From: Fibrobacter sp.
GTDB lineage: Bacteria; Fibrobacterota; Chitinivibrionia; Chitinivibrionales; Chitinispirillaceae
Length of the DNA stretch: 46,880 bases
Reading direction: 5' to 3'
Assembly (NCBI GenBank): GCA_012523595.1
Contig: JAAYIG010000097.1
Location: 1 to 46,880, forward strand
Made by a program: the position numbers and the translations under genes. The notes beneath the pieces were generated by a model. It did no database searches and had not been told where the DNA came from. It saw nothing but the letters and a program-made list of their open reading frames with translations. This document shows positions 1,355-44,822 of the stretch, piece after piece. Within the stretch, counting starts at the first letter, position 1. Every line of letters starts with the position of its first letter.

Positions 1355-1446
1355 AATTACGAGTGTACGAAGTTACGACAGCACGATAGCACGAAAGTAA
1401 TGAGGGTACGATAAGGCAGTGTACCACAAAGTTGAAGTACGATGCA
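1355..1446 (+). repeat. Array of about 11 direct repeats phased every 8 bp, core GTACGA (…TGTACGAA GTTACGAC AGCACGAT AGCACGAA…)
   Basis: ACGA/TACGA occurs at 1359, 1367, 1375, 1383, 1391, about 1400, 1408, about 1416, about 1424, about 1432 and 1439. Confidence 0.65.
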
Positions 1447-1540
1447 GATTTTATATTATGAGATGAAATGACGGTTTAACAGAAGAGAGGTGTCACCAGT
1501 ACTTATATGACAATCGAAATACCCTAAAACCAACAGATTC

Positions 1541-1604
1541 CCTCGTATCTTTGTATTTCCGTACTGTCGTACCCTCGTACTTTCATACACTCTAACTCGT
1601 CTAC
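1541..1604 (-). repeat. Inverted partner array, about 8 units phased every 8 bp, core TCGTAC (CCTCGTAT CTTTGTAT TTCCGTAC TGTCGTAC CCTCGTAC TTTCATAC…)
   Basis: It is the reverse complement of the 1355-1446 array motif and lies about 95 bp away, ending at the stop codon of the 1601-2767 gene. Confidence 0.65.
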
Positions 1605-5652: not shown

Positions 5653-6696
5653 TCAGACCTTTACCTCACCTGAAGAGCAGACCTCTGGTTTACTGAACTC
5701 AAGATAATCTCTCAAATTATCCCTGAGCAGTTCCGGAGTATCAATCCCGTAAGGACATCTTGACCTGCAATGCCCACAGTCGCTGCATTGATTAATAAGA
5801 AGCATCTTCTCCCGCCATTCAGGAGTAAGAAAATTCTGAGAAGGAGCTCTTCTGAGCAGAAGCGACATGCGCGCTGTCATGTTGATCTGTATTCCCTGAG
5901 GACATGGCATACAGTATCCGCATCCGCGGCAGAATTGAAAGGAGAGTTCTCTTTGATCTTTTTTTATAAGTTCCCGCAGATTCTCATCGAGAACTGGTGG
6001 GTTTTTCTCCAGTTCCAGAAATTGATCGAGTTCCTCCTCCCTCTGAATCCCCCACACAGGAACCACATTTTCATATTGACGCAGAAACGCAAACGCGGCA
6101 GCGGCATTAGTAATCAGCCCTCCCCCCATCGCCTTCATTGCTATAAGCCCGCAGTCATTCTTCAAACACTCATCAATAAGTCGAAGCTCATCACTGGTGG
6201 AAAGAATACTGAGCGGAAACTGGATTGTATCATAAATACCCGATCGGGCGGCATTGATAGCGTTCTCAAGGCTGTGATTTGTAAAACCAACATATCTCAC
6301 CATCCCCCTCTTCCTGGCTTCCAGAACCCCGGAAAGAGCACTCTGCGGATCCAAAGGATCAGGTACTTTAGATGGATTATGAAGCTGGAGGATATCCACA
6401 TAATCTGTGCGCAGGTTTTTAAGACTGGTCTCCAGGTCTTTAAGGAGATCATCTTTATTATCTGCAGAGGATTTGGTGGCCAGAATAATATCATGGCGCA
6501 CATCACCGAGCGCGGCTCCGATTTTCTCCTCACTGTCAGAATAGTTTCTGGCAGTATCGAAAAAGTCAAAACCGTTATGGTATGCTTTGCGGAGTATATG
6601 GACCGAATCGTTGAGGGATATTCTCTGTATTGGCAAAGCGCCAAAACCGCTTCGCCCAATCAAAAGCCCGGTTCTCCCCAGGCGCATCTTTTCCAT
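5653..6696 (-). CDS. Aldo/keto reductase with a fused C-terminal 4Fe-4S ferredoxin-type domain
   Basis: 347-aa ORF. The N-terminus has the AKR signature (…GFDFFDTARNYSDSEEKIG…). The C-terminus has two Cys clusters (CRGCGYCMPCP and CSDCGHCRSRCP). Confidence 0.8.
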   Translation of the reverse strand: MEKMRLGRTGLLIGRSGFGALPIQRISLNDSVHILRKAYHNGFDFFDTARNYSDSEEKIGAALGDVRHDIILATKSSADNKDDLLKDLETSLKNLRTDYVDILQLHNPSKVPDPLDPQSALSGVLEARKRGMVRYVGFTNHSLENAINAARSGIYDTIQFPLSILSTSDELRLIDECLKNDCGLIAMKAMGGGLITNAAAAFAFLRQYENVVPVWGIQREEELDQFLELEKNPPVLDENLRELIKKDQRELSFQFCRGCGYCMPCPQGIQINMTARMSLLLRRAPSQNFLTPEWREKMLLINQCSDCGHCRSRCPYGIDTPELLRDNLRDYLEFSKPEVCSSGEVKV

Positions 6697-6763
6697 TAAA
6701 ACAGTTTCTCTTTCTGACTCTTAAGATAGAAAAATACTTCAGACGCGCAGGGGAGATCAAAAT

Positions 6764-7351
6764 TCAGAGCGAATCTGAGTTTTCTCCTCGAGGTGCTGTT
6801 TCAGGAAAAACTTTTTTAGACGAAGTCTCCCGGATAGTCATGCTCCCGAAAATCACACTTGCCTTAATTAAGCGGTATGGGGCAGATTTATCGAAGGCTT
6901 TGTTCTTATATGTATAATCCCCGAAACTGACAAAATTCCCATCAGGCATCCTCGCGCCCGAAAAGGCTGCGCTTACCTTGATAAGTACCGGTATATCGGA
7001 TGGGATCTCGAGCACACTGGAGCCGAAAATGGTGTTTATTTCCAGCTTATCATTTCCCTTTGCCAATGGCATCGATGCATCTATACGGGAAGATCCGAAA
7101 ACCACGCTGTATTTATGGCTCTCCCCGGTGATCTTTAGATCACCGCTTTGGAAAATCACAGAACTGCTTCCACTCCTTGTCCAGGTTCCTCCCAGAAGGA
7201 CCTGTAATCCAAGATAGATCAGAATAAGAGCGAGGACGATACGGAATACAGGAATGTGGATATTGAATACTATACGGATTATAAGCGAAACACCGACAAG
7301 AATCAGTACCACACCCCAGAAAATTCCAGAAAAAAGAAATCCCATTTTCAA
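6764..7351 (-). CDS. Membrane protein, LiaF-like/DUF2154-like (N-terminal transmembrane helices plus C-terminal beta domain)
   Basis: 195-aa ORF. Two N-terminal hydrophobic helices are followed by a Gly/Ser-rich beta-strand domain. The family assignment is tentative. Confidence 0.4.
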   Translation of the reverse strand: MKMGFLFSGIFWGVVLILVGVSLIIRIVFNIHIPVFRIVLALILIYLGLQVLLGGTWTRSGSSSVIFQSGDLKITGESHKYSVVFGSSRIDASMPLAKGNDKLEINTIFGSSVLEIPSDIPVLIKVSAAFSGARMPDGNFVSFGDYTYKNKAFDKSAPYRLIKASVIFGSMTIRETSSKKVFPETAPRGENSDSL

Positions 7352-7452
7352 TTGTCTCCTCCACAGAAAACTGTTGACAAATTTACATTCTGCAAACTTC
7401 TCAGATTTTCTAAAATCAATTATGCAGATGCTTTCTGCAAGGTATTTTCAGT

Positions 7453-9561
7453 TTACTCAGTTTTTTCCGATACCCTTAATGCTCTGGATGAATTAAGTAC
7501 CGCAATCAGTGCCATTCCCATATCCGCAAAAACCGCCTCCCACATTCCCGCCAGGCCCACTGCTCCAAAACCAATAAACATCACTTTTACTGTCAAGGCA
7601 AAGATAATATTCTGCCACACAATAGCTCTAGTGCGTTTTCCGGATTCTATGGCCTGCGCGACTTTTGAAGGATGATCGGTCATAAGTACCACATCCGCGG
7701 TCTCTATCGCAGCATCGGAACCCAGCGCTCCCATCGCTATTCCCACATCGGCCCGTGCAATAACCGGAGCATCATTTATCCCATCACCCACAAAGGCCAC
7801 TTTCCCACGATGTGTCTTACTGGACGATATCTCCTCAAAACGCAACACTTTCTCCTCAGGAAGAAGCCCCGGGTAAAACGAATCGAGATCAACCTCCTGT
7901 GCTACCTTTCCGGCAGAAGCCTTATTATCTCCTGTTAACATCGACACTGTATGCACACCGGCTTTCCTCAGCATTTCCACAGCTATAACAGAGTCTTCCT
8001 TGAGTTCATCACCTATTACTATGTATCCTGCATAGGTTCCGTCAATTACCACATGTACAACTGTACCCTCCACATCACAGCAGTCATGCCTTATTCCCTC
8101 TCTGTGTAGAAGCGCATCATTGCCTGCCATTATGGCATGGGTGGCAGTACGTACCTTCACCCCGAAACCGGATATCTCCTGATGGTCAAGAACCTCACCT
8201 GATATGGAATCCCGACTGCGACCTGCAGCCTCAATTATAGATCCGGCAATCGGATGCCGGGAAAAGGTCTCTGCAATCGCCGCAAATTCAAGCACCTGCG
8301 AGGGAGTATGCCCGTTACGGGCTACCGTTTGTTTTACTTTAAATATTCCTTTGGTAAGTGTACCGGTTTTATCAAAAACCACAGTCTTTACATCAGCCAA
8401 AGCATCGATAAAAGTCGATCCTTTGACAAGTATTCCCCTTCTGGAAGCGCCACCGATACCACCAAAGTAACCAAGGGGAATCGAAATGACAAGCGCACAT
8501 GGACAGGAGATCACCAGAAGCACAAGTGCTCTGTAAATCCATGTGCTGAATGTCTGCCCCGAAATAAATAAAGGAGGTATCAGCGCAATACACAACGAGA
8601 GAAAGAAAACCACAGGAGTGTAATAACGCGCAAATCTGGTTATAAACTGCTCAGTACGGGTTTTCTTGGCATTGGCATTTTCGACCAGATCGAGAATTTT
8701 GGCAATTGATGAGTCGGCGAAGGCTTTGGTTACCTTTATTGTAAGCAACGCACTTACATTAATTTCACCAGCCAGCACCACATCACCCGGTTTGACAGTT
8801 GATGGAACAGGTTCTCCTGTAAGAGCAGCAGTATTTACAAGCGATGATCCCTCCAGAACTTCCCCGTCCAGAGGAATTCTCTCCCCGGCTCTTACCAGAA
8901 TTATCTCTCCAGGAAGCACCTTATCGGGTGATACTCTCCTGGAACCATCCCTGCTTTTAAGCATCGCATACTCCGGCTTGACCTGAAGCAGTGCTGTAAT
9001 AGATTTACGGGATCGGGAAACCGCCAGGTTCTGCATAAACTCACCGATTTTAAAGAAAATCATCACCCCTACGGCCTCGGAAACAGCATGAATTCCAAAA
9101 GCCCCAGCTGTAGCAATTGTCATCAGCACATTTTCATCGAAAATGATTCCCTTGCTTATTGTGCGCAAAGCACCCCTTAAAACATTGTAGCCGGCCAGAA
9201 AGTATGCACTCAGTGCTACAGCATACTCTATAAAACCCCAGGAACGCCTGTGAAAAGAGCCTTCAAAAAAAAGCAGGATTAAAAACAGCAGCATCGCTAC
9301 AGAGATTGTGACAATCTCCCTCTTTGGATCAAATTCGGCTTTCACTGCTGAAAGAGGTTCCGGAACTGATATGTCGACTTCAGGTTCGATTTTCTTTATC
9401 TCACGACGTACCTTTTCTATATCGTCTGTATCGATATGCAGAGAAAGAGAAGCGTAGTCTAATGAGACCTCTTTTACAGAAGAAATATTCCTGAGGTGAT
9501 CTTCGATTCTGGTTGCACAGTCAGGACAGTCCAGGCCAGTAACATTGTACCTTTTCATCAT
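7453..9561 (-). CDS. cadA: Heavy-metal (Cd/Zn/Pb-type) translocating P1B-type ATPase
   Basis: 702-aa ORF. It has an N-terminal HMA domain with a CxxC motif (GLDCPDCA), a CPC motif in the membrane (SCPCALV), DKTGTLT phosphorylation and GDGINDAP hinge motifs. Confidence 0.9.
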   Translation of the reverse strand: MMKRYNVTGLDCPDCATRIEDHLRNISSVKEVSLDYASLSLHIDTDDIEKVRREIKKIEPEVDISVPEPLSAVKAEFDPKREIVTISVAMLLFLILLFFEGSFHRRSWGFIEYAVALSAYFLAGYNVLRGALRTISKGIIFDENVLMTIATAGAFGIHAVSEAVGVMIFFKIGEFMQNLAVSRSRKSITALLQVKPEYAMLKSRDGSRRVSPDKVLPGEIILVRAGERIPLDGEVLEGSSLVNTAALTGEPVPSTVKPGDVVLAGEINVSALLTIKVTKAFADSSIAKILDLVENANAKKTRTEQFITRFARYYTPVVFFLSLCIALIPPLFISGQTFSTWIYRALVLLVISCPCALVISIPLGYFGGIGGASRRGILVKGSTFIDALADVKTVVFDKTGTLTKGIFKVKQTVARNGHTPSQVLEFAAIAETFSRHPIAGSIIEAAGRSRDSISGEVLDHQEISGFGVKVRTATHAIMAGNDALLHREGIRHDCCDVEGTVVHVVIDGTYAGYIVIGDELKEDSVIAVEMLRKAGVHTVSMLTGDNKASAGKVAQEVDLDSFYPGLLPEEKVLRFEEISSSKTHRGKVAFVGDGINDAPVIARADVGIAMGALGSDAAIETADVVLMTDHPSKVAQAIESGKRTRAIVWQNIIFALTVKVMFIGFGAVGLAGMWEAVFADMGMALIAVLNSSRALRVSEKTE

Positions 9562-9969: not shown

Positions 9970-10212
9970 TTGAATAAGTGTTCAATTGAAATATAACAAG
10001 AAAGAGATGAACAATCAAATATTATTCAGTAGCACGGAAAAGAAACAGCATTAAAGCATGCACTGGAAACCTTAAGGACAAGAACAATCAAAAGATATAT
10101 ACGAATCCATCTTATCGATAAGGAAAAGGCTATCGTACCCTTAAAAGCAAAAAGATAGTCCGTCCCTTTTGTTAATCGTTTAAGCCAATAATTCATCCCG
10201 CAGGACCTGTCA

Positions 10213-10240
10213 TGCTGTCGTGTTGTCGTATCGTCGTCCT
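10213..10240 (+). repeat. Three units of an 8-bp-phased TGTCGT repeat (TGCTGTCG TGTTGTCG TATCGTCG)
   Basis: It lies in the divergent promoter region between the cadC-like gene and the acyltransferase gene. The motif is related to the TCGTAC arrays at 1541-1604. Confidence 0.5.
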
Positions 10241-10307
10241 TCCCGCAGAGGACTAAATTCTACTCGATCCGGCACACCTTTCGCTCTCCACTACCCCGGG
10301 ATACCTC

Positions 10308-11357
10308 ATGAAAAACGGAAGACTCCTCTGGCCAGATATTCTAAAAATTATCTCCATTCTGGGTGTCATCCTTATACACTGTTCAGCACCGATGCTGGTA
10401 AGTGAACCTTTAGGAGGAAAAAGCTGGTGGCTGGCCAATATTTACGATTCCATGGTAAGGTGGTGTGTCCCTGTCTTTTTCATGGTCAGTGGCGCCTTCA
10501 TAATTGAAAAAGCAGGATCACCTTCCCCGGGACAATTTTTCCTGAAACGCTCACAAAAAATCGTAGTGCCATTCATAATCTGGAGTGCACTCTATTTCCT
10601 CTGGAGAATCCACAAAGGAGAAAACCTCAAATGGCTCAATTTCCCTGCTATGCTCCTCGAGGAGCCAATCTATTATCACCTGTGGTTTATCTACGTGCTG
10701 ATTGGACTCTACATCATCGCCCCTGTGCTTGGTGCCTACGTTAAAGGTGCAAGCAGGAAAAACCAGTCTTATCTTCTTTTTCTCTGGTTTATTACCGCAT
10801 CCCTTCTCCCCATGCTTCAGAACTGCTGTAAATTTCATACCTTCTTTTTCCCGGTGGAAACAGTCTCCGTTTTAAAATTCAGCGGGTACTTCTTTCTTGG
10901 CTATTTCCTGAGAGATACAAAACCCAAAGCTGCACTCATGCCGGTTTTCTTCCTCCTCTATGCAATCGGTTTTCTGATTACCACCTTTGGAACCTACTAT
11001 TTATCACTTAAAACCGGAAACGAAAGCATTTCAGAACTTCTTTACGAATACTACACAGTAAACGTACTTGCCATGTCCGTTTCGGTTTATCTCATAGTAA
11101 AGAGTATCCCATTCCCGCTGCTTTCCAGCACTAAATCCCCCATTGCCGTAACAGCCGCCTGTGTACCAGGTGTCTACTTTGTGCATGCCTTTGTAATCGC
11201 TGTTTTCAAACAGGGATTGCTTGGGTTTACATTCTCGGAGAGATCTCTCACCCCGGCAATCGGAATTCCTGTCTTTACACTGGCGGTTTTTACCGTATCT
11301 CTTTTAATCACTCAGATTCTTAGACTCATTCCAGTACTGAAATGTTCAATACCATGA
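10308..11357 (+). CDS. Acyltransferase family 3 (OafA/YrhL-like) integral membrane protein
   Basis: 349-aa ORF with the characteristic N-terminus (…DILKIISILGVILIHCSAP…VPVFFMVSGAF…) and about 10 transmembrane segments. Confidence 0.75.
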   Translation: MKNGRLLWPDILKIISILGVILIHCSAPMLVSEPLGGKSWWLANIYDSMVRWCVPVFFMVSGAFIIEKAGSPSPGQFFLKRSQKIVVPFIIWSALYFLWRIHKGENLKWLNFPAMLLEEPIYYHLWFIYVLIGLYIIAPVLGAYVKGASRKNQSYLLFLWFITASLLPMLQNCCKFHTFFFPVETVSVLKFSGYFFLGYFLRDTKPKAALMPVFFLLYAIGFLITTFGTYYLSLKTGNESISELLYEYYTVNVLAMSVSVYLIVKSIPFPLLSSTKSPIAVTAACVPGVYFVHAFVIAVFKQGLLGFTFSERSLTPAIGIPVFTLAVFTVSLLITQILRLIPVLKCSIP

Positions 11358-14389: not shown

Positions 14390-15220
14390 CTAATCCTCTT
14401 TTTGAACCTTCGAAACAGGAAACATCTGAAAATTAATCTGGTACACCCGGTCAGAGGGATTGTCTGCTTTAACTATCTCCACCAGTCGTCTGCGGAACGC
14501 AGCAATCTCCTGGCGGATCTGATCAAATCCGGAAGATGAAATCCCTACGGTCAGTGTAGAGATATCACGGATATCACGGGTGTGCTTCTCAATAGATCTT
14601 GAAGCCAGTTCGAGGCATTTTTTCTGGAAAAGCTGCACAGCAAAAGGAATCGTATCGGAATCTGTCCTGAGGGCAGAATCAGTCTGACGATATCGTCCGG
14701 AGGGCAGTTTTTTTATCAGGCCCAGATCACACAATATCTTTACCGCTTCCTCGGCCTGTTCAGGAGTAATTGGTGGTTCCACAGTTCTGGCAAGCAGTCT
14801 GAAATTATCCTTGAAATCGAACATGGTAACAAGCTCTCTTATCGCCACAAAATACCATTTGGAAAAATACTCAAACTGGCTCTTGAGAACAAGTTGTCCC
14901 TGAACAGCAGGTGAAAGTTCTTTTACTTTTGTAAAATAGTACTCTTTTTCCCTAATGGTTTTGGCATTATTGAAATCGACCAGAGCATTGAGATATTCTG
15001 TTTCCCTGTATTTTAATTTAATGGCTTTTGCCACCTTGAGGACACTGCTTTTTGCCAGATTCTTTTTGCCGGTGATTACCTTATGAAGATATGTTTTGGA
15101 TTTAAGACCAGCCCTGTCGGCAAGAGCCTGATAAGAGAAGGATGGATTGAGCATTTTCTGCTCTGTATAGTAGTCCCTCAGAAACAACCGATAATCGGTG
15201 TAGTCAAAGATTGAGATCAT
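14390..15220 (-). CDS. TIGR02147-family protein (Fibrobacter-type paralogous family, putative DNA-binding)
   Basis: 276-aa ORF. Its N-terminus (MISIFDYTDYRLFLRDYYTEQK…SYQALADRAGLKSKTYLHKVITGKKNL) matches my memory of the TIGR02147 family. It ends 2 nt before the downstream secreted-protein gene. Confidence 0.55.
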   Translation of the reverse strand: MISIFDYTDYRLFLRDYYTEQKMLNPSFSYQALADRAGLKSKTYLHKVITGKKNLAKSSVLKVAKAIKLKYRETEYLNALVDFNNAKTIREKEYYFTKVKELSPAVQGQLVLKSQFEYFSKWYFVAIRELVTMFDFKDNFRLLARTVEPPITPEQAEEAVKILCDLGLIKKLPSGRYRQTDSALRTDSDTIPFAVQLFQKKCLELASRSIEKHTRDIRDISTLTVGISSSGFDQIRQEIAAFRRRLVEIVKADNPSDRVYQINFQMFPVSKVQKED

Positions 15221-16137: not shown

Positions 16138-16701
16138 ATGAATCCCTCAGGCCCGTTAAGAAAAGAGCATCGTCTTATCGAAAAACTCCTCACTCTTATC
16201 CATCAGGAAACTCTGTTTATCAAACAACAGAAACGGGTTAATCCAGTCTTTATCGATACTGCGGTGGATTTTATCAAAATGTATGCAGACAGGACCCATC
16301 ACGGTAAAGAGGAGCAGATCCTTTTCTCCACTCTCGAAGATCGTGACCTCAGGAAAGAAGATCGCCTCATGATGGAGGAACTGATACGGGACCATGTTTA
16401 TGTAAGAGAGCTTACAGATCAGATTTTCGAATACAAGACCAGATATGTAAAGGGGAACCATGAACTCCTGATGCCTATAGTAGAGAAGATGGATAATCTG
16501 GTGAAGTTTTACCCCGGCCATGTCTGGAAAGAGGATAATTCTTTCTTTCCCGCATCTCTGACCTATTTATCTGAACATGAGCAGCAGGAGATGCTTGAGC
16601 AATTCTATGATTACGACAAAAATATGATTCATATCAAATACACTCAGGTCATAACCCGGCTCAAGGAAACTTCACAGAGGGATATGCAAAACCACCTGTA
16701 G
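16138..16701 (+). CDS. Hemerythrin-like (HHE cation-binding) domain protein
   Basis: 187-aa ORF with His/Glu-rich hemerythrin-type motifs (…RTHHGKEEQILF…, …IRDHVYVREL…). Confidence 0.55.
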   Translation: MNPSGPLRKEHRLIEKLLTLIHQETLFIKQQKRVNPVFIDTAVDFIKMYADRTHHGKEEQILFSTLEDRDLRKEDRLMMEELIRDHVYVRELTDQIFEYKTRYVKGNHELLMPIVEKMDNLVKFYPGHVWKEDNSFFPASLTYLSEHEQQEMLEQFYDYDKNMIHIKYTQVITRLKETSQRDMQNHL

Positions 16702-22533: not shown

Positions 22534-24282
22534 TTGATTGATAAAGAATCTGATCAGGGAAAAAGCCTCCTGAACACCGGAATATCCGACACATCATCTC
22601 TGCCCCGGCTCGGTGAAATAATCGGTAACTGCAGAATCACCTCCATTCTGGGTGAAGGCGGTATCGGGATCGTCTATAAGGGTTTTGAAGTCGACATCGA
22701 GATGGAACGCGCAATCAAGGTGCTCAAACCCGGTGCTGACGAGATCCTGAGGAAGCAGTTTGAGGTGGAGGCAAAGGTAACCGCCAGACTCGATCATCCA
22801 AACATCATCAAAGTCCATGGCGGAGGTATCTGGGACGGCAGATTACCGTTTATTCAGATGGAATACATCGACGGAAAATCTCTCAGGGCAATTCTCAATG
22901 AATATCCCTCGCTTCCTCCTGCTGTATGCCTTTCTATAATTTCCGTGATCGCCTCAGCCCTTGATTATGCATACGGAAAATCCTTCTCCATCTGGGGCAA
23001 TTCCTCGGAAAAACTGGTTCATCTTGACCTTAAGCCGGAAAATCTCCTTCTGACCGGGGATGGAATTCTGAAAGTGATGGACTTCGGACTGGCACAGCTT
23101 GGAGAGGAGCGATACAGGCTCGATTATGGTACTCCGTATTACATGAGTCCGGAACAGCACGACCAGCAGAAGGTAGACTGCAGAAGCGATATCTATACCC
23201 TGGGTATTATTCTTTACGAGATGCTATGCGGAGTAAGACCATTCAAAGGTGAACTGGAATCGATGATCTCCTCAAAGATGTCCGGTGAAATGACTCCAAT
23301 CAGCGAACTGGCCGGTGGATTGCCTGAAAAAGTCTATAAGATTGTTGATAAATGCCTGATGTTTGACAGGGAAAACAGGTACGATACACATGAATCTCTT
23401 CGTCGTGACATAGACAGTGCGCTTTCCGAAATTGCCTTTCTTTCCCCTCAGGAACTGATCAGAAGGTTTATGGATAACCCGGATGACTTCGATGCTACAA
23501 TCTGCATCCCCACAATAAATCTTCCACAGCATCCTGTACACAGGTACATTCCAGTATCTCTGGCAGTAATAGCTCTGATAGCTGTCGGGTATTTTGCTTT
23601 TCGATTTTTCCACTCTCCGGAAAGTAAACAAGATGAGTCTGCGGCTCTGATCGGAAAAATGAGTGACAGCGCGACAGTATCAGTGATAGATTCAATCGAG
23701 CCGCCACTGAAGGAAGTCAGTCAAAAGACTAAAGCAGCCATCCCGGCAATAAAGACCAGTTTACCATCTGTGAACCAGGAACAGCCCAGGTCTGTTCTTC
23801 AGGAGGCAATTGACGCATTTAAGGAGAAAAACTATACGGCTGTGATAGTGAGTATCAACTCCACAGGGCTCGATAATCTGACCGGGGCTACACGGGACAG
23901 TGCAGTAGTGCTCCTGGCAGATGCCTTCTATCATGCCAGATATATCCGTGAAATAATCGAATTGAGCAGCAAATACGATGTAAATGATGTACGTTTCTAC
24001 TCTGATGTCTCCCTTGCTTATGAATTAGCGCCTGATTTCAGCACTGCGGCACACTACATGGAAAAAGCGATTCTTGCGCCTTCTATAATATGGAGACAGC
24101 CCAGGGCAGAGATTCTGTTAAGAAGGGCACAGTTTTACAAACGTCGCTTTGAGGCGTTACAGGATGAAACAAGCAGGGCCAGCATGATCGAAGCGTACAG
24201 CAGATTCCTGAATGAGGGATGTCAGCGACCAGGGAAAGAATGTAATGAGGCAAAGGCTTTTCTGGAAGCTTTAAGGAGTTGA
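22534..24282 (+). CDS. Hanks-type serine/threonine protein kinase with transmembrane segment and C-terminal helical (TPR-like) domain
   Basis: 582-aa ORF with a TTG start at 22534. Kinase motifs are GxGxxG-like (GEGGIGIVYKG), VAIK-like (AIKVL), HLDLKPEN, DFG and GTPYYMSPE. A transmembrane helix (…PVSLAVIALIAVGYFAF…) follows. Confidence 0.85.
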   Translation: MIDKESDQGKSLLNTGISDTSSLPRLGEIIGNCRITSILGEGGIGIVYKGFEVDIEMERAIKVLKPGADEILRKQFEVEAKVTARLDHPNIIKVHGGGIWDGRLPFIQMEYIDGKSLRAILNEYPSLPPAVCLSIISVIASALDYAYGKSFSIWGNSSEKLVHLDLKPENLLLTGDGILKVMDFGLAQLGEERYRLDYGTPYYMSPEQHDQQKVDCRSDIYTLGIILYEMLCGVRPFKGELESMISSKMSGEMTPISELAGGLPEKVYKIVDKCLMFDRENRYDTHESLRRDIDSALSEIAFLSPQELIRRFMDNPDDFDATICIPTINLPQHPVHRYIPVSLAVIALIAVGYFAFRFFHSPESKQDESAALIGKMSDSATVSVIDSIEPPLKEVSQKTKAAIPAIKTSLPSVNQEQPRSVLQEAIDAFKEKNYTAVIVSINSTGLDNLTGATRDSAVVLLADAFYHARYIREIIELSSKYDVNDVRFYSDVSLAYELAPDFSTAAHYMEKAILAPSIIWRQPRAEILLRRAQFYKRRFEALQDETSRASMIEAYSRFLNEGCQRPGKECNEAKAFLEALRS

Positions 24283-26205
24283 ATCAAGTACCTCTATTCC
24301 TTTTTTTGTAATAACCCTCATATCCCCTCTTCTCTCAGTCACTCCTTCCTTGTCGTAAATTGATAACAGGAGAAGACAGAGCTTGCGGTTTGCACTTATC
24401 AGATCTCTGAATGCAGCCACAGTGAGACCTTCCGGGGTCTCTTTAAGTTTGCGCAACAGAGTAATCCGTGAGGAATCTACAATCGAGGAGTGGATAAGAT
24501 CCGATTCCGCTTTATATAATAAACCGGCTGAAATCAGATGTTGAATAATCTGTCTGAGCAGATGATTATCCAGACCATTTCTCCTGGCATGCAGCTCGAG
24601 TTCCGAAAGAAGAGGCGTTTTCAGACCACAGTCTTTAAAGAATCTCTCTACAATATCGATCTCCCGGACATAAAGCCCTGATGCTGCATGATGACCATGA
24701 AGGCTCCACCGATGTCCCTCTTTTCTTAATTTCTTCTGGTTAACCATCCGCGCCAGAATTGCCCCAAGAATATCTTTCCCATCCTGGCCTTGACAAACAG
24801 GGAGTATCCCCTGGAGTTCCTCAAGAGCAGGTCCTGAGGAAGCGAGCGGGTTCTTTTTGTGATAATCAGCAATTCCCCTGATAATCCTGCTGCAGGTACT
24901 ATCGAGATCAGCTTCGTCAATCAGATAGAGATCTTTTTCCCCCTGAAGACGGATAACACATGAGAGTTCAGTTGAAACAATCTCTGCGGAAGAGATATTC
25001 AACCGCTCCACAAGAGATTTCAGAGAGATTCCACCCGGGTTTTTCTTCACTTCAGAAGTAATCAGTTCCGGTAATTTCCCGGTTGAAAGTTTCTTCAATC
25101 TCTCAATCAGTTGTGAAGAACGTCTTCTGTGATGAAGCGGCGAGGCATCGATTATCTCTCCTCCGCCCAGAGTAGTATCACACGATGAACTACGCAGCAC
25201 AAAACGATCCCCGATCTGAGCAGTACAGGGTTCTTCAAGATGAATCTGGACTATAGCACATTCCCCCGCACGAATCGATTGCTTATCAAGAAGATGAATT
25301 CTGGCCTGTGACTCGAAAGTCCCCAGGAGAAAAACGGCTCGTGACCACAACTTGAGAGTTTTCCCAGATTCAAAAAGGTTGAAGTTTGCATCCAGAAGCA
25401 TTGATGAGCGCAGAAGACGGTCAGAAACCAGCATGCCTCTGGCAGTCTCCTCACGGGATACACCTGAAAGATTCAGTGATGCCCTGTCACCGGCAGTCAC
25501 CTCCTCCACTTCATTGCCATAGCGCTCCAATCGCCGCAGTTTCAGTTCCCTGCCCCGGGGAAGAAGGTATACCGTGGAGCCAGCCTTCACAGTGCCGCCA
25601 ATAACTGAACCGGTAGCCACAGTGCCGTATCCACTGACACTGAACACCCGGTCTATGAACATCCTGAAAACCTCACTACCGGCACGTACTCTGACTTCCG
25701 AAGCCGCTCTTGCTATGGCACCTTTCAGCTCATCAATACCTTCGCCGGTTTTTGAGGAGACCTTTACAATGGGTGCATTCTCCAGAAATGTACCTTTGAC
25801 CAGTTCACGAATTTCAGTCTCTGCCATATCGGAAACTTCAGGATCAGCCAGATCGATCCTGGAGATCACAATGATACCGCTGCGCACTCCCAGTATCTGC
25901 ATTATTCTCAGATGCTCCCTGGTCTGGGGCATCACTCCACTGTCTGCTGCGACAAGGAGAAGTGCTATATCGATTCCGCTTGCCCCGGCCACCATCGTAT
26001 GCACAAAATCCCTGTGCCCCGGAACATCGACTATGCCAATTGTATCACCTGATGGAAGCTTAAGGGATGTAAACCCCAGGTTTATGGTAATCCCCCGGCG
26101 TTTCTCCTCTTTGTGAGTATCGCATTCAATTCCGGTAAGTGCTTTAACAAGAGCAGTTTTTCCGTGATCAACGTGCCCGGCAGTACCCAGGATGAGATGT
26201 TTCAT
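24271..26205 (-). CDS. selB: Selenocysteine-specific translation elongation factor SelB
   Basis: 644-aa ORF with GTPase motifs (GHVDHGKT, DVPGH). The long C-terminal winged-helix extension is typical of SelB. Its start overlaps the selA stop (ATGA). Confidence 0.9.
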   Translation of the reverse strand: MKHLILGTAGHVDHGKTALVKALTGIECDTHKEEKRRGITINLGFTSLKLPSGDTIGIVDVPGHRDFVHTMVAGASGIDIALLLVAADSGVMPQTREHLRIMQILGVRSGIIVISRIDLADPEVSDMAETEIRELVKGTFLENAPIVKVSSKTGEGIDELKGAIARAASEVRVRAGSEVFRMFIDRVFSVSGYGTVATGSVIGGTVKAGSTVYLLPRGRELKLRRLERYGNEVEEVTAGDRASLNLSGVSREETARGMLVSDRLLRSSMLLDANFNLFESGKTLKLWSRAVFLLGTFESQARIHLLDKQSIRAGECAIVQIHLEEPCTAQIGDRFVLRSSSCDTTLGGGEIIDASPLHHRRRSSQLIERLKKLSTGKLPELITSEVKKNPGGISLKSLVERLNISSAEIVSTELSCVIRLQGEKDLYLIDEADLDSTCSRIIRGIADYHKKNPLASSGPALEELQGILPVCQGQDGKDILGAILARMVNQKKLRKEGHRWSLHGHHAASGLYVREIDIVERFFKDCGLKTPLLSELELHARRNGLDNHLLRQIIQHLISAGLLYKAESDLIHSSIVDSSRITLLRKLKETPEGLTVAAFRDLISANRKLCLLLLSIYDKEGVTERRGDMRVITKKGIEVLDSTP

Positions 26206-27611
26206 TGAAGCGCGCCTCTCACACAGTCAACTGTCGCCTCGACAATGACCGGCAGATCTTTACCTGACAGGGCAAAAACATCGAAAACTATCCGCCCCTC
26301 CCTCAGGATACCAAGCACAGGCAGATCCCTTTTCAGCAGATTATGGAATACCGATTCGGCGAAAGCCTCTCTGTCCTTAACAGGTGAGATAAGCGTCACT
26401 GCGTAGCTGGGGATCTTCAGGTCAGGAAGAGTACCGCCTCCGCATTGACCTGTGCTCTCTGAGATTTCGGAGGCAATCTGTCTTTTTGCCAGCTCATCTT
26501 TTAAAGTAACTGCGATTTCCCGTTTTTCTTCATCTTTACGATGCAGGAAATAGAACACAGGGTTGTTTTCGACAAGGCTTTTATCACTGAGATAACTTCT
26601 GCAGGCTTGAGAGAGTGCTGCTATTGTAAGTTTCCCCACACGCAAAGCTCTCATCAGAGGGGCACGTGAAAGTGCAGAAACAAGCTCCCTTCGCCCGGCA
26701 ATTATACCGGCCTGCGGTCCTCCCAGCAGCTTGTCACCTGAAAACATGACAAGTTCAGCACCGTCATTGATAGCGCTCTGCACATTTGGCTCATTTTCAA
26801 AGCCCTTGAGGTCAGGTTTGCGAAGCAGTCCTGAACCAATATCGTAGAAAAGTGGAATCTGATACGATCGGGCAAGAATGGAAAGCTCCCTCACCGATAC
26901 TTCCTCTGTAAAGCCCTCGATCGTATAGTTCGACTTGTGAGCCTTGAATATGGCCGCGGTGGCCGGATTTATCGCCTGTTCATAATCTGAAAGCCGGGTG
27001 CGGTTTGTAGTCCCCACCTCGATCATCTTTGCCCCTGAGGCAGCCATTATTTCCGGAATCCTGAATGCCCCTCCGATTTCAATCAATTCCCCTCTGGAAA
27101 TAATCACCTCTTTACCGGAAGCAAAAGTACTGAGGGCAAGAATTATTCCTGCGGCGTTGTTATTTACAATTATTATACCTTCGGCACCGGTAAGATAGGT
27201 CAGGAACTCGGAAAGATGTTCTGTACGATGGCCTCTGGAGGCGCTCTGAAGGTCGAATTCCAGATTGGAGTACCCGCTTATCACCGGTATCATTCCTTCC
27301 ACTACTGCATCACCAAGGGGTGCCCGGCCAAGATTTGTATGAAGCAGAATTCCTGTGGCGTTAATTACAGGTTTCAGTGAGGGTTCACAGATAGCTTTTA
27401 CAATATCACCGGCTGAGTGCGAGATGCCTTCGGGCGATAGATCTATCTTATTCTCCCCGGCTTCCATAGAGATTCTTGCGTTCTGCAGTGCCCGGCGGAC
27501 AGCATAAGTCACAATTGCACGACCGTGGCGCTCAATAAGCTCCTCTGAAATTCCGGTATGAAGTACTTTGTCAACACTTGGCAACTGTCGGAAGTTCTTT
27601 TCTGGATTCAT
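26202..27611 (-). CDS. selA: L-seryl-tRNA(Sec) selenium transferase SelA
   Basis: 469-aa ORF matching the SelA N-terminus (…FRQLPSVDKVLH…) and the PLP-fold region, located between tRNA-Sec and selB. Confidence 0.9.
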   Translation of the reverse strand: MNPEKNFRQLPSVDKVLHTGISEELIERHGRAIVTYAVRRALQNARISMEAGENKIDLSPEGISHSAGDIVKAICEPSLKPVINATGILLHTNLGRAPLGDAVVEGMIPVISGYSNLEFDLQSASRGHRTEHLSEFLTYLTGAEGIIIVNNNAAGIILALSTFASGKEVIISRGELIEIGGAFRIPEIMAASGAKMIEVGTTNRTRLSDYEQAINPATAAIFKAHKSNYTIEGFTEEVSVRELSILARSYQIPLFYDIGSGLLRKPDLKGFENEPNVQSAINDGAELVMFSGDKLLGGPQAGIIAGRRELVSALSRAPLMRALRVGKLTIAALSQACRSYLSDKSLVENNPVFYFLHRKDEEKREIAVTLKDELAKRQIASEISESTGQCGGGTLPDLKIPSYAVTLISPVKDREAFAESVFHNLLKRDLPVLGILREGRIVFDVFALSGKDLPVIVEATVDCVRGALQ

Positions 27612-27635
27612 TTGGATATTTCTCTTGAGGTATTT

Positions 27636-27730
27636 TGGCGGAGAGAGCAGGAATCGAACCTGCCACAGACGGTGTTATCCGCCCGCTACTGGTTTTGAAG
27701 ACCAGCCGGAACACCAGTTCCAACCTCTCT
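27636..27730 (-). tRNA. selC: tRNA-Sec (anticodon UCA), selC
   Basis: The minus-strand sequence has a 5/7/5 anticodon arm CUGGU-CUUCAAA-ACCAG with anticodon UCA. It also has a 6-bp D-stem with a 4-nt loop, a long variable arm, T-arm GCAGG-UUCGAUU-CCUGC and a 3' GCCA. It sits immediately upstream of selA-selB. The ends are approximate. By hand I find only 6-7 acceptor base pairs. Confidence 0.75.
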
Positions 27731-31753: not shown

Positions 31754-32068
31754 TTGGAGGCAATCCTGACCTATATCACTACCAAAGACAAACAACAGGC
31801 CCGTCTCATAGGCAAAACTCTTGTAGAGGAGCGGCTCGCTGCTTGTGTCAATATTATCGACGGGATGCAATCAATTTATTGGTGGGAAGGTGCCATAAGC
31901 GAGGACAATGAGGCAATCCTTATCGCCAAAACAAGAAACAGTCTTCTTGAGAAACTGACCAACAGAGTAAAATCACTCCATACTTACACCTGCCCCTGTA
32001 TAATTGCCATTCCAATCTCCGGAGGAAACAGGGATTACCTAGGGTGGATAAAAGAGACCACTGATTAA
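31754..32068 (+). CDS. cutA: Divalent-cation tolerance protein CutA
   Basis: 104-aa ORF with a TTG start and AGGAGG at 31741-31746. CutA1 signatures are present (…RLAACVNII…YWWEG…EAILIAKT…). Its stop codon lies inside an ACCACTGATTAA repeat. Confidence 0.85.
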   Translation: MEAILTYITTKDKQQARLIGKTLVEERLAACVNIIDGMQSIYWWEGAISEDNEAILIAKTRNSLLEKLTNRVKSLHTYTCPCIIAIPISGGNRDYLGWIKETTD

Positions 32069-32090
32069 CCTGATCAATCTGAAATAGTCT
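32057..32090 (+). repeat. 9-bp-phased TGATT array starting ACCACTGATTAA (TGATT 32062, TGATC 32071, TGAAA 32080)
   Basis: Its first unit encodes the CutA C-terminal …TTD plus the TAA stop. Confidence 0.7.
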
Positions 32091-32241
32091 TGAACTGTGG
32101 TTCCTGTGATTAAGATGATTGGGATGATTTCTGGATGGATTCCTGCTTGCGCCAGGAAGGACGTGAGGGAAAATGTTCTGTTGTAAATAGTGCCTGTCAC
32201 CTCCAGGTGTCATGTCTGTGAAAACAGGCATCCAGGCCAAG

Positions 32242-32284
32242 ACCACTGATTAACCTGATTGTCCTGATCAATCTGAAACAGTCT
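32242..32284 (+). repeat. 9-bp-phased TGATT array starting ACCACTGATTAA (four units: 32247, 32256, 32265, 32274)
   Basis: It starts 185 bp after the 32057 copy. It shares about 55 bp of downstream sequence (…CAATCTGAAAYAGTCTTGAACTGT…) and has one extra 9-bp unit. Confidence 0.7.
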
Positions 32285-35914: not shown

Positions 35915-36856
35915 ATGAAACCTCTGCTGAAAAAATACAAAGCCGGAACAATTCTTTTCCATGAGAATGACCACTCACGTGAACTGTATATAATTCAAAC
36001 CGGGAAGGTCAAAATCTACAGGATGATCGGCAAGCATGAAATGCAACTGACTGTACTTGGCGAGGGGTCTGTGCTTGGAGAAATGGCACTGATCGATGGA
36101 GAACCAAGAAGCGCCTCTGCCAAAGTGATCGAAGACAGCGATCTGATACAACTCGATTCGGAAACTTTTAATGAAGAGATAGAAGGAGTTCCTCCATGGT
36201 TCATGACTATCATCAAGATGACAAGCCAGAAGATATACCAGGCAAAACGCCGCCTTCAGAACAAAAGCAGTGAGCATCAGGGCGCCAACATCATAATAAC
36301 AATCCTTTATTTCTTCAATTTTTACGACAAACAGAGCAACGGCCTGGATATCAGTCAAACCCGGCTGAAACTTGTACAACTGCTTGGAGTCACTTTGCAA
36401 AAAGCAACCCATATTATCTCATTTCTGCACGGAAAAGGATTTCTTGAGATTAAAGATGAAAAGATGTTTCTTTGCTGCCGCAAAGAAATGGAGGATTACT
36501 GCAGTTTTCTGAGATTACTTATCCGTAAACAGTTTGAGGTACTCCAGCCACTGGATAATGAGGCTTTCGGGATAGTCGAGAAGATCTGGAATACCAAGGG
36601 AGGAATCAGAAAATTCGAAGAAGGATTAACAGAGATAAGCGGAGATGTTTTCTTAAGCTTTGTCGAAAACACCTCTTATTCATCAAACCCAGATGAGTTT
36701 CTGGAAATGCTCAGGAGCCAATCCCTGCTGACCTATACCAAACCCTGTAAAAATTCCGACAATTCAATTTCAAATTGTGTTCTTAAAATCGACAATATGA
36801 AGTGGAAACGTATTTACCTTTACAGCAAATTCAACCAACTCATACCGGCCGCATGA
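35915..36856 (+). CDS. Crp/Fnr-family regulator (cNMP-binding domain plus HTH) with an extended C-terminal tail
   Basis: 313-aa ORF with a cNMP-binding beta-roll (…GEGSVLGEMALIDGEPRSASAKV…) and a Crp-type HTH (…ISQTRLKLVQLLGVTLQKATHIISFL…). A tail of about 110 aa has no recognisable domain. Confidence 0.65.
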   Translation: MKPLLKKYKAGTILFHENDHSRELYIIQTGKVKIYRMIGKHEMQLTVLGEGSVLGEMALIDGEPRSASAKVIEDSDLIQLDSETFNEEIEGVPPWFMTIIKMTSQKIYQAKRRLQNKSSEHQGANIIITILYFFNFYDKQSNGLDISQTRLKLVQLLGVTLQKATHIISFLHGKGFLEIKDEKMFLCCRKEMEDYCSFLRLLIRKQFEVLQPLDNEAFGIVEKIWNTKGGIRKFEEGLTEISGDVFLSFVENTSYSSNPDEFLEMLRSQSLLTYTKPCKNSDNSISNCVLKIDNMKWKRIYLYSKFNQLIPAA

Positions 36857-37902
36857 AAAAAATCATTTTATTGCTTTCACTTGTTTTTATCTGTGGAGCA
36901 GAGCAGAGAGCAGGCGGTATCCTTACAGTCAATACCCGGTGGGATGCCGATGAGGGGCCATTTATTCTTGAACGAGACCTGGTGATACCCGAGGGTGTCA
37001 GGTTGACTATCGCTCCAGGCACAAATATCATAATTGCGCCATCCCCCATCGCCGATACCTCAAACCAGATCGACAGAACAGATTCTCTATCAATCTCCAT
37101 CAAGGTTCTCGGAGGAGCACTTATCTGCGTCGGACGACGAGATAAACAAATAAGCTTCTCTCCTTCAGAACCGCAGCCTGGAAGGCACTCATGGTATGGA
37201 ATAATTCTTAATGCCGCCGAAGAACCATTCACTGAGATCGCTTTTACAGAAATCAGCGGCGCATACTGTGCCTTGTCAATAATGAAATGCAGTCCTGTGA
37301 TCCGTAACAGTATACTGGAATACAACTATCTTGGAATTAACTGTATCAATAAGAGTTCTCCTCAGATCCTTAACTGTGTAATCTGCCGAAATTTCGCGTC
37401 TGGAATAAAAACCCGTGAATCAAATCCCTTCATTACCAGCAGCATCATCGCCTTCAACAGCAACACCGGAGTCTGGTGTGACGGGTTATCAAAAATCAAT
37501 TTTGAATACAATTGCGTTCACGGTAACGGGGACGGTAATCTCCTCGATTGTGATCCTGAACTGGGAATACTGACAAAAACAAACAAAAACAAGGACTCCT
37601 GCGACTTGCACTTCAACCTTTACCGCGATCCGGTATTTGCCGGTTCTTTAGCAGATTCCATCGCTCATGAACAGGATATCTCTGTTCCTACAAAGAAAAG
37701 CAGGATAAAGAATTTTGCTCTGGCCAGAATTATCCACGATGAAGATACGGCTAAACAAAAAGTCAAAACCAGGACAGGAAAATACAGCCTGTCGAATTAT
37801 TCCCCATGTATAAATGCCGGTAATCCAGCTGACAGGTTCAAAGACGCAGATGGCTCGAAAAACGACATGGGTGTCGAGGGAGGACGAGAATTTTACCACT
37901 GA
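36853..37902 (+). CDS. Secreted right-handed parallel beta-helix repeat protein
   Basis: Start placed at ATG 36853 (MKKIILLLSLVFICGA, signal peptide), which overlaps the Crp-like gene stop (ATGA). The six-frame ORF extends upstream to 36802. Its stop TGA lies inside a CACTGATTAAG repeat. Confidence 0.55.
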   Translation: MKKIILLLSLVFICGAEQRAGGILTVNTRWDADEGPFILERDLVIPEGVRLTIAPGTNIIIAPSPIADTSNQIDRTDSLSISIKVLGGALICVGRRDKQISFSPSEPQPGRHSWYGIILNAAEEPFTEIAFTEISGAYCALSIMKCSPVIRNSILEYNYLGINCINKSSPQILNCVICRNFASGIKTRESNPFITSSIIAFNSNTGVWCDGLSKINFEYNCVHGNGDGNLLDCDPELGILTKTNKNKDSCDLHFNLYRDPVFAGSLADSIAHEQDISVPTKKSRIKNFALARIIHDEDTAKQKVKTRTGKYSLSNYSPCINAGNPADRFKDADGSKNDMGVEGGREFYH

Positions 37903-37936
37903 TTAAGCTGATTAAAATGATTTAGCTGATTTTTTA
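37895..37936 (+). repeat. 9-bp-phased TGATT array starting ACCACTGATTAA (four units at 37900, 37909, 37918, 37927)
   Basis: The first TGA is the stop codon of the 36853-37902 gene. Confidence 0.7.
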
Positions 37937-42098: not shown

Positions 42099-42140
42099 AC
42101 CACTGATTAATCTGATTAGACTGATTGCGATGATTATTCA
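42099..42140 (+). repeat. 9-bp-phased TGATT array starting ACCACTGATTAA (four units at 42104, 42113, 42122, 42131)
   Basis: It lies in the intergenic region between tonB and the TonB-dependent receptor gene, both on the minus strand. Confidence 0.7.
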
Positions 42141-44767: not shown

Positions 44768-44822
44768 AACCACTGATTATGACCACTGATTAAACTGATT
44801 TTAATGATTAACCTGATTAGAA
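44768..44822 (+). repeat. 9-bp-phased TGATT array with duplicated head (AACCACTGATTAT GACCACTGATTAA…; five units at 44774, 44787, 44796, 44805, 44814)
   Basis: It lies in the intergenic region between the DUF438-like gene and exbB. Confidence 0.7.

Follow-up and report, generated by a model that had tools for sequence, protein, structure and literature searches.

The window analyzed here is a stretch of 46,880 nt of DNA, a contig from the MAG of an uncultured member of the Fibrobacterota (labelled 'Fibrobacter sp.'), and relatives of the contig are labelled Chitinispirillaceae. Two genes on the - strand, encoding a geranylgeranyl-reductase (GGR)-family flavoprotein (1601-2767) and a GT4 glycosyltransferase (GT, 198-1310), border a spacer in which two arrays of short repeats take up the space from the GGR stop codon to near the -35 element of the GT gene. 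The GT promoter (1320-1348, - strand) consists of a -35 TTCCCA (1348-1343), a 17-nt spacer and an extended -10 TGtTATAAT (1328-1320), and the GT ATG (1310-1308) lies 9 nt beyond the extended -10. In all relatives examined (L138, L140, L142, L146 and L149), an extended -10 TGnTATAMT was likewise found 7-9 nt 5' of the GT ATG. Considering this short distance, the GT mRNA is probably leaderless or nearly so, with a transcription start predicted at about 1311-1313. Since such an mRNA would start downstream of the array next to the promoter, that array could not act within the GT mRNA.

Repeats and paralogs of other kinds are also found around the locus. Just left of the window, 360 bp past the GT gene, lies a Y1 transposase gene (321 aa, Y1_Tnp, PF01797) bordered by units of ~55-65 nt, which are bounded by ACCTCCGAGG / CACCYCNGAGATGA and were found at 1-197 of the window, in L001 at 6130-7710 and in L149 at 2400-2900. 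A TIGR02147 'Fsuc_second' / DUF4423 paralog of a Fibrobacter-type paralogous family lies at 14390-15220 (- strand, 286 bits), and another TIGR02147 copy adjoins the GGR-like gene in L149 (1-814). The presence of the paralog in the window agrees with the taxonomic assignment of the contig. There was no evidence for a link between the arrays and the nearby Y1 transposase gene or the TIGR02147 paralog.

Layout and phase of the arrays

The promoter-proximal array (1355-1411, - strand) contains seven units, six of them with perfect cores, and reads TCGTACCC TCATTACTT TCGTGCTA TCGTGCTG TCGTAACT TCGTACAC TCGTAATT in the sense (-) direction; TAGTGCTG is the core-mutated counterpart of the unit TCGTGCTG. 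On the + strand, ACGA starts at 1359, 1367, 1375, 1383 and 1391, giving five perfect units in exact 8-bp steps, and ACGA is found again at 1408, shifted by +1 against the phase, and at 1439, where the phase is restored. From the end of the last core of this array (1362-1359), it is 10 nt downstream to the GT -35. The outer part of the left arm (1412-1446, - strand) is decayed, and one recognizable core is left in it (ACGA at 1439-1442 on the + strand). It is followed by a non-repetitive core segment (1447-1540), which contains GAGGTGTCACCAGTAC at 1487-1502, exactly where the first-pass annotation of this DNA had located it. A sigma-70-like site on the + strand (1432-1459) lies within this inverted-pair segment. 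The second array (1541-1600, + strand) flanks the 3' end of the GGR-like gene with TCGT-type cores from 1543 to 1597, which stand in 8-bp phase as TCGT at 1543, TTGT at 1551, CCGT at 1559, TCGT at 1567, TCGT at 1575 and TCAT at 1583; an additional TCGT at 1597 comes just before the TAG stop codon (1601-1603, - strand), which adjoins the array. In the sense (-) direction, this array is (nnGTACGA)n and begins right after the TAG. The first-pass annotation had described ACGA every 8 bp over 1355-1446 in ~11 units and TCGTAC every 8 bp over 1541-1604 in ~8 units. Both phased arrays are real and far beyond chance, and the right one does run to the stop codon of the 1601-2767 gene, but both unit numbers were overcounted.

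The period of the arrays was strict. Eight occurrences of TACGA/TCGTA were counted in 250 bp, where the composition of the window would lead one to expect 0.29. The five-unit phased score reached 23/25 on both arms at period 8, while periods 6, 7, 9, 10 and 11 gave at most 16-17 anywhere. When (TCGT N4)x4 was searched in the window with at most one mismatch, matches were obtained only at period 8, and only at the inverted-pair locus and at 10210. A scan with the PWM of the array family gave 40.6 bits for the promoter-proximal array, 35.1 bits for the GGR-flank array and 29.4 bits for a third array, compared with a null maximum of 10.8 bits from 40 Markov shuffles; apart from these three, nothing in the 46.9 kb scored above the null. 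A period-9 PWM match at 16616 was rejected as an array, since it falls within an ORF and contains just one TCGT.

The third array (10202-10241, + strand), which belongs to the same family, reads cTGTCATG cTGTCGTG tTGTCGTA TCGTCGTC on the sense strand of an acyltransferase_3 gene (10308-11357) and ends 67 nt 5' of its ATG. The smaller related array that had been noticed near 10213 is real, with four units (10208-10240) instead of the three given. Upstream of it, the recurrence of TCGTACCC was also found, one position to the left of the reported 10134-10141: an isolated octamer at 10133-10140 (+ strand), a single unit with no array. The window holds a second dispersed array family as well, in which (G)ACCACTGATTAA is followed by decaying 9-bp units nCTGATTAn (32061-32082, 32107-32129, 32246-32276, 37899-37931, 42102-42126 and 44785-44819). 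CTGATTAA occurs six times, always on the + strand, and the ACCACTGATTAA-type copy at 37899 starts inside the TGA stop of the ORF 36802-37902.

Short repeats in direct and inverted phase bear a general resemblance to plasmid iterons and to parC/parH sites, and replication or partition iterons had been suggested for this locus, with GC skew and the proximity of dnaA as the check. The GC skew was negative and the cumulative skew monotonic across the whole window, with no sign change. No DnaA box TTATCCACA with at most one mismatch was present in 1300-1650, and no dnaA, dnaN, rep, parA/B or parM/R gene was present in the 46.9 kb. A distant-mode blastn search gave no match to plasmid or phage records, the neighbours of the arrays are the GGR-like and GT4 genes, and the array family has many chromosomal copies. 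We therefore rejected a replication origin as well as a plasmid or chromosome partition site, and give this explanation practically no weight.

Known structured RNAs and a coding origin were rejected too. With Rfam 15 at the gathering score, the only match in the window was tRNA-Sec (27641-27729) and the only match in seven related loci was to SRP RNA, with none at the arrays. The tRNA-Sec gene (- strand) adjoins selA (26202-27611) in a selenocysteine module (24271-27729) that also includes selB (24271-26205). A coding remnant does not fit a period that is not a multiple of 3, an only ORF of 44 aa, and a core between the arrays that evolves neutrally (see below). Complementarity between the two arms was 74% over 39 nt. 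The single-stranded DNA fold of the inverted-pair region was unremarkable (z = -1.45), which argues against the cruciform structures that the first-pass annotation had considered.

A dispersed family with a constant TCGT core

A metagenome scan for TCGTRYTG x2.5 returned at least 120 matches, mostly unrelated perfect repeats. Among the matches listed were five contigs of this bacterial group with degenerate TCGT arrays; their tetranucleotide signatures match that of the window (r = 0.72-0.93), and three of the five carry at least two arrays. Because the scan listed mostly unrelated repeats, the family census is small and partly ascertained by the TCGT pattern itself. By exact protein look-up, contigs L212 and L232 were found to be from the sister species itself, in which further arrays lie after the stop codon of a DUF5695 gene and upstream of a GH5 gene (L212), and after the stop codon of pgpA (L232). 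Taken by loci, the window has two (with three arrays), and the sister species has those two and three more (two in L212, one in L232). Family arrays are also present in the compositionally matching contigs L255, L166 and L248. In viral sequences, a scan for (TCGT N4)x5 gave more than 120 matches, all of them perfect 8-bp VNTRs of unrelated viruses and thus uninformative, and a degenerate scan for TCGTRYYS x3.5 gave 12 matches, none related to this bacterial group. Seven viral contigs (L028, L035, L053, L054, L071, L112 and L127) share a flank CTTGGAGCAGACTTTAAA followed by five 8-bp units, TCGTTAAT / TCGTCAAT / TCGTTATT, and this site looks like a conserved phage iteron-type site. As judged from the sequences compared, the array family is restricted to a narrow lineage: besides the two sister species, only a few contigs of similar composition carry it.

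To describe the units, we derived a consensus, TCGT-R-Y-Y-S, from 97 of them, in arrays of 4 to 14 units. Steps of 8 bp predominate, at about nine in ten outside a single 9-bp run in L255, and every period-8 TRF array in the family contigs has a TCGT/ACGA core. In these TRF-defined, motif-agnostic arrays, mismatches to the column majority numbered 11/355 in the TCGT columns and 90/323 in the spacer columns (Fisher p = 5e-21). The core columns are 97-100% conserved and the four spacer columns are variable, so that the core is ~9-fold less variable than the spacer. Considering this difference, plain uniform microsatellite decay cannot explain the arrays, and the TCGT core is either selected or regenerated. 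Perfect sub-runs are also present, TCGTGTTG x4 and, at period 9 in L255, TCGTATCTC x9. Based on these sub-runs, the 9-bp run and the unit changes between species, slippage evidently adds whole units to the arrays and removes them.

The surroundings of the arrays differ. At four independent genes (GGR, DUF5695, pgpA and CE2 esterase), repeats with ACGA in the sense direction begin 0-5 nt past the stop codon, although 4/4 orientations amount to p = 0.125 only, a weak statistic. Sense-strand TCGT arrays lie upstream of the GT, acyltransferase, GH5 cellulase and CE2 esterase genes, and at the last of these (L255), 11 nt separate the end of the last core from the -35 of a promoter, TTGACC-17-TATATT, that is unrelated to the GT promoter. 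Arrays also occur in convergent spacers without a promoter (L212 6392-6600 and L255 851-1315). Two conserved non-coding elements were noticed at different loci beside TCGT arrays and CAZyme genes, one of ~180 nt with copies that are 87% identical (L212 8687-8866 and L255 887-1065) and one of ~82 nt with copies that are 85% identical (L212 6489-6567 and L255 2859-2940). As they have no Rfam match, both are possible unannotated RNAs or regulatory modules.

The sense-strand ACGA just past four stop codons would fit an RNA-level element, in which (ACGAnnnn)n is a 3'-UTR motif that either binds a protein or signals termination or processing. At the GGR-GT spacer, it may pair with the downstream (UCGUnnnn)n into a long imperfect hairpin that ends or stabilizes the GGR transcript before the GT promoter is reached. 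The RNA folds of the sense-strand spacer are in line with this, being better than those of shuffled sequences in the two species (z = -2.77 and -3.16), unlike the fold of the antisense strand (z = -0.76). However, the other family loci have no inverted partner, and where a TCGT array is promoter-proximal, transcription of the following gene starts only downstream of it. A terminator-like hairpin with a U tract was not found, nor was a consensus hairpin-plus-U-tract terminator in any of the four spacers scanned, and with no Rfam match and so few orientations to count, we consider an RNA-level role rather unlikely.

The other spacers with two arrays carry them in direct orientation, some arrays are single, and the inverted pair occurs only at the main locus. 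The simplest view of the inverted pair is thus that two family members have come together in a single tandem-gene spacer, and the pair looks like a palindrome because the two arrays point in opposite directions. That the two arms are separate members of a lineage-restricted, dispersed octamer family with the unit 5'-TCGT-R-Y-Y-S-3' is well supported. The large palindrome seen as a functional unit in the first-pass annotation is not supported, given the single or direct arrays in other spacers, the nearly neutral core and the unremarkable single-stranded DNA fold.

Gain, loss and constancy between species

Ten contigs of the same species, assembled from different metagenomes (L001-L010), are 99% identical to the window through the spacer. 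The window differs from them by an extra G in GGG at 1404-1406 and by A instead of T at 1517; without the extra G, the phase of the core at 1408 is perfect, and the ten contigs have an additional TCGT at 1514-1517. The main locus of the window is 1 nt longer than in the ten other contigs, among which no length variation was found, nor was any found among seven contigs of the sister species. In the sister species, the GT is 97% identical in protein and 87% identical at 4-fold sites. All three arrays are kept there with the 8-bp phase held, and the gains and losses are of whole units. The array after the GGR stop has 7 units in the window and 11 in the sister species (+32 bp), the promoter-proximal array has 5 perfect cores and 4, respectively, and the acyltransferase_3 array has 4 units against 13 perfect TCGT units. 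Within the promoter-proximal array, 0/16 core positions and 6/16 spacer positions changed, whereas in the array after the GGR stop, 4/28 core and 1/28 spacer positions changed, all by CpG-type transitions, which make up most core changes. The GT promoter is nearly invariant between the two species. The 130-bp core between the arrays is ~85% identical, compared with 87% at 4-fold sites, and thus appears to evolve at about the neutral rate. At the acyltransferase_3 locus, two Logan contigs break within the 13-unit array of the sister species, and within the species, contigs break inside the array and one unit differs.

The persistence of the periodicity in relatives with conserved synteny, which the first-pass annotation had named as telling, is a matter of distance: it is kept in the sister species and gone in all more distant relatives. 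Arrays are absent from the orthologous spacer of relatives with 72-92% GT identity, although the gene order is conserved. In a lineage with 90-92% GT identity, the same GGR-GT spacer holds about seven 60-nt tandem units in place of the arrays, and six further relatives that share the GGR-GT order have a spacer of 96-268 bp devoid of arrays. The 60-nt unit is related to the units flanking Y1_Tnp and contains the octamers ACGAGTGC and ACGAGTTA, which also begin the arrays at the GGR-GT spacer. A scan of genome contigs with the GGR protein yielded one contig, which ends before the spacer. As the gene order is kept in relatives that lack the arrays, any function of the arrays is dispensable at this locus.

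Several of these observations are as expected of repeats without a function, STRR-like and driven by slippage, that fill the free intergenic space up to a stop codon or a -35, so that the pair and the promoter would be incidental. The unit numbers differ between the sister species (7 and 11; 4 and 13), the perfect sub-runs TCGTGTTG x4 and TCGTATCTC x9 indicate recent slippage, and Logan contigs break inside the 13-unit array. The arrays are also missing from relatives with conserved gene order, another lineage has a 60-nt tandem repeat in the same spacer, the arrays extend precisely up to the stop codon on one side and the -35 on the other, and the core between them evolves neutrally. Nevertheless, uniform decay cannot give a core with 9-fold lower variability (p = 5e-21), one core is common to all period-8 arrays at unrelated loci, and no unit-number polymorphism was seen at the main locus in either species (11 and 7 contigs). 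We regard neutral repeats as a serious but somewhat unlikely explanation.

A non-autonomous mobile element (MITE or foldback element) with subterminal repeat arms, or an invertible promoter segment, was also considered. The block of ~250 bp is an insertion relative to relatives with spacers of 96-160 bp, its arms are inverted, the sigma-70-like site at 1432-1459 (+) would face the GT gene on flipping, and there is the Y1 transposase gene 360 bp beyond the GT gene. However, a second copy of the core between the arrays was not found in any fetched locus, where it appeared only at the orthologous locus, and no flanking direct repeat that would mark a target-site duplication was seen when the flanks were read by eye; on these two grounds, a MITE was rejected. 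The unit number of the arms differs between species, the remaining members of the family are unpaired, and a recombinase gene was not found nearby. The pair has a single orientation throughout the 18 assembled contigs of the two species, which (as distinct from reads) give no sign of an inverton. A 10-bp inverted repeat that is perfect in the window has mismatches in the other ten contigs of its species. We therefore consider a mobile or invertible element very improbable.

Proposed tandem binding and comparison with known systems

The explanation that we rank first, though tentatively, is the phase-locked tandem binding of a putative factor beside the GT promoter and at gene ends. The arrays would then be reiterated recognition sites for a sequence-specific factor of this bacterial group, with one TCGT per protomer and neighbouring protomers packed every 8 bp along double-stranded DNA. 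By analogy, the packing geometry could be that of ribbon-helix-helix proteins, as on the met-boxes of MetJ, the parH boxes of ParG and the heptads of omega. A nucleoprotein stretch beside the -35 may tune or insulate the GT promoter, an array at a gene end may hinder read-through from the GGR-like gene, and the unit number would set the occupancy.

In favour of tandem binding are the strict period of 8, the dispersal of the arrays, the constraint on the core, the last core 10-11 nt from the -35, and the start of the GT mRNA, which is predicted to lie downstream of the array. Against it, arrays are found in promoterless convergent spacers too, and a rigid protein lattice would not tolerate the period-9 array TCGTATCTC x9 in L255. 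In the array at the GGR stop, the cores changed more than the spacers (4/28 and 1/28), and the arrays are dispensable here, as seen from relatives that have the same gene order without them. In addition, ACGA in the sense orientation at the stops of four independent loci hints at a strand-specific, RNA-level role. The binding platform for an oligomerising regulator that the first-pass annotation envisaged agrees with the fixed core, the free 4-bp spacer and the 10 bp to the GT -35, though binding itself is only inferred.

A related possibility, which we hold to be improbable, is that the arrays are polar boundary marks of this bacterial group, where RNA polymerase is stopped by a protein or by the nascent RNA when it meets the ACGA-sense face first. 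The polymerase would meet this face after a stop codon, or antisense when coming from the next promoter, and reiterated octamers would insulate transcription units in place of hairpin terminators.

The combination of four fixed and four free bases at a strict 8-bp phase is an unusually clean recognition signature, and since copy-number variants exist between sister species, beside identifiable promoters and stop codons, the question is directly testable. A binder, should there be one, would be a new global factor with affinity for DNA or RNA in the Fibrobacterota, a group of fibre degraders that has been little studied; if there is none, the arrays would be a case of constrained-looking repeats that arose without function. 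In addition, short-read assemblies break at the arrays, and this affects the quality of MAGs.

We found no published description of the array family, and a literature search for Fibrobacter intergenic repeats returned nothing relevant. Its closest precedents are the cyanobacterial STRRs and the paired octanucleotide sites of Geobacter metallireducens, both catalogued for decades without a function. The STRR heptamers, the classical example of such repeats, are 7-bp units, repeated as a whole unit, that are lineage-specific, dispersed, intergenic and variable in copy number. The arrays described here are likewise lineage-specific, dispersed, intergenic short tandem repeats of variable copy number. 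What sets them apart from STRRs is that just 4 bp of each unit, the core, are fixed while the remaining 4 bp vary freely, as would be the case for a recognition site and not for a satellite.

Among protein-bound arrays, those of ribbon-helix-helix proteins consist of 8-bp met-boxes for MetJ, of 4-bp boxes with 4-bp spacers in parH for ParG, and of 7-bp heptads for the omega repressor, and they sit at promoters of the binder's own operon or regulon. The present arrays resemble them in their contiguous units (7-8 bp), short conserved core, variable copy number and orientation, and abutment on promoters, but they also lie after stop codons and in convergent spacers, and reach up to 14 units.

In G. 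metallireducens, the class 1 predicted global regulator binding sites are tandem octanucleotides GTTGCTYN, found at 24 loci as paired sites on opposite strands at variable distance, with four units each, of which the outer two are weak (Aklujkar et al. 2009, PMC2700814). G. sulfurreducens lacks these sites, and binding by a protein, a global regulator, has been proposed for them (PMC2700814). Both systems have tandem octanucleotides in many spacers of one species that are missing from close relatives. They differ in consensus and unit number (TCGTRYYS in 4-14 units here, GTTGCTYN in a fixed four there), and, in contrast with the Geobacter sites, our family has one inverted pair only, at the main locus, and no IS element at a fixed distance.

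The hmw1A/hmw2A genes of Haemophilus influenzae are reported to carry 7-bp repeats and belong to the SSR contingency loci of promoters or 5'-UTRs (PMC8262952, PMC12721329). In such loci as in our arrays, short tandem repeats separate surface- or envelope-related genes from the promoter region, and the unit number could tune expression; contingency repeats are perfect and polymorphic within populations, whereas the main-locus arrays are degenerate and show no length variation in 18 contigs. Taken all together, the array family sets itself apart by its consensus, its host phylum, its variable unit number, its division into a 4-bp core and a 4-bp spacer, and its association with gene ends.
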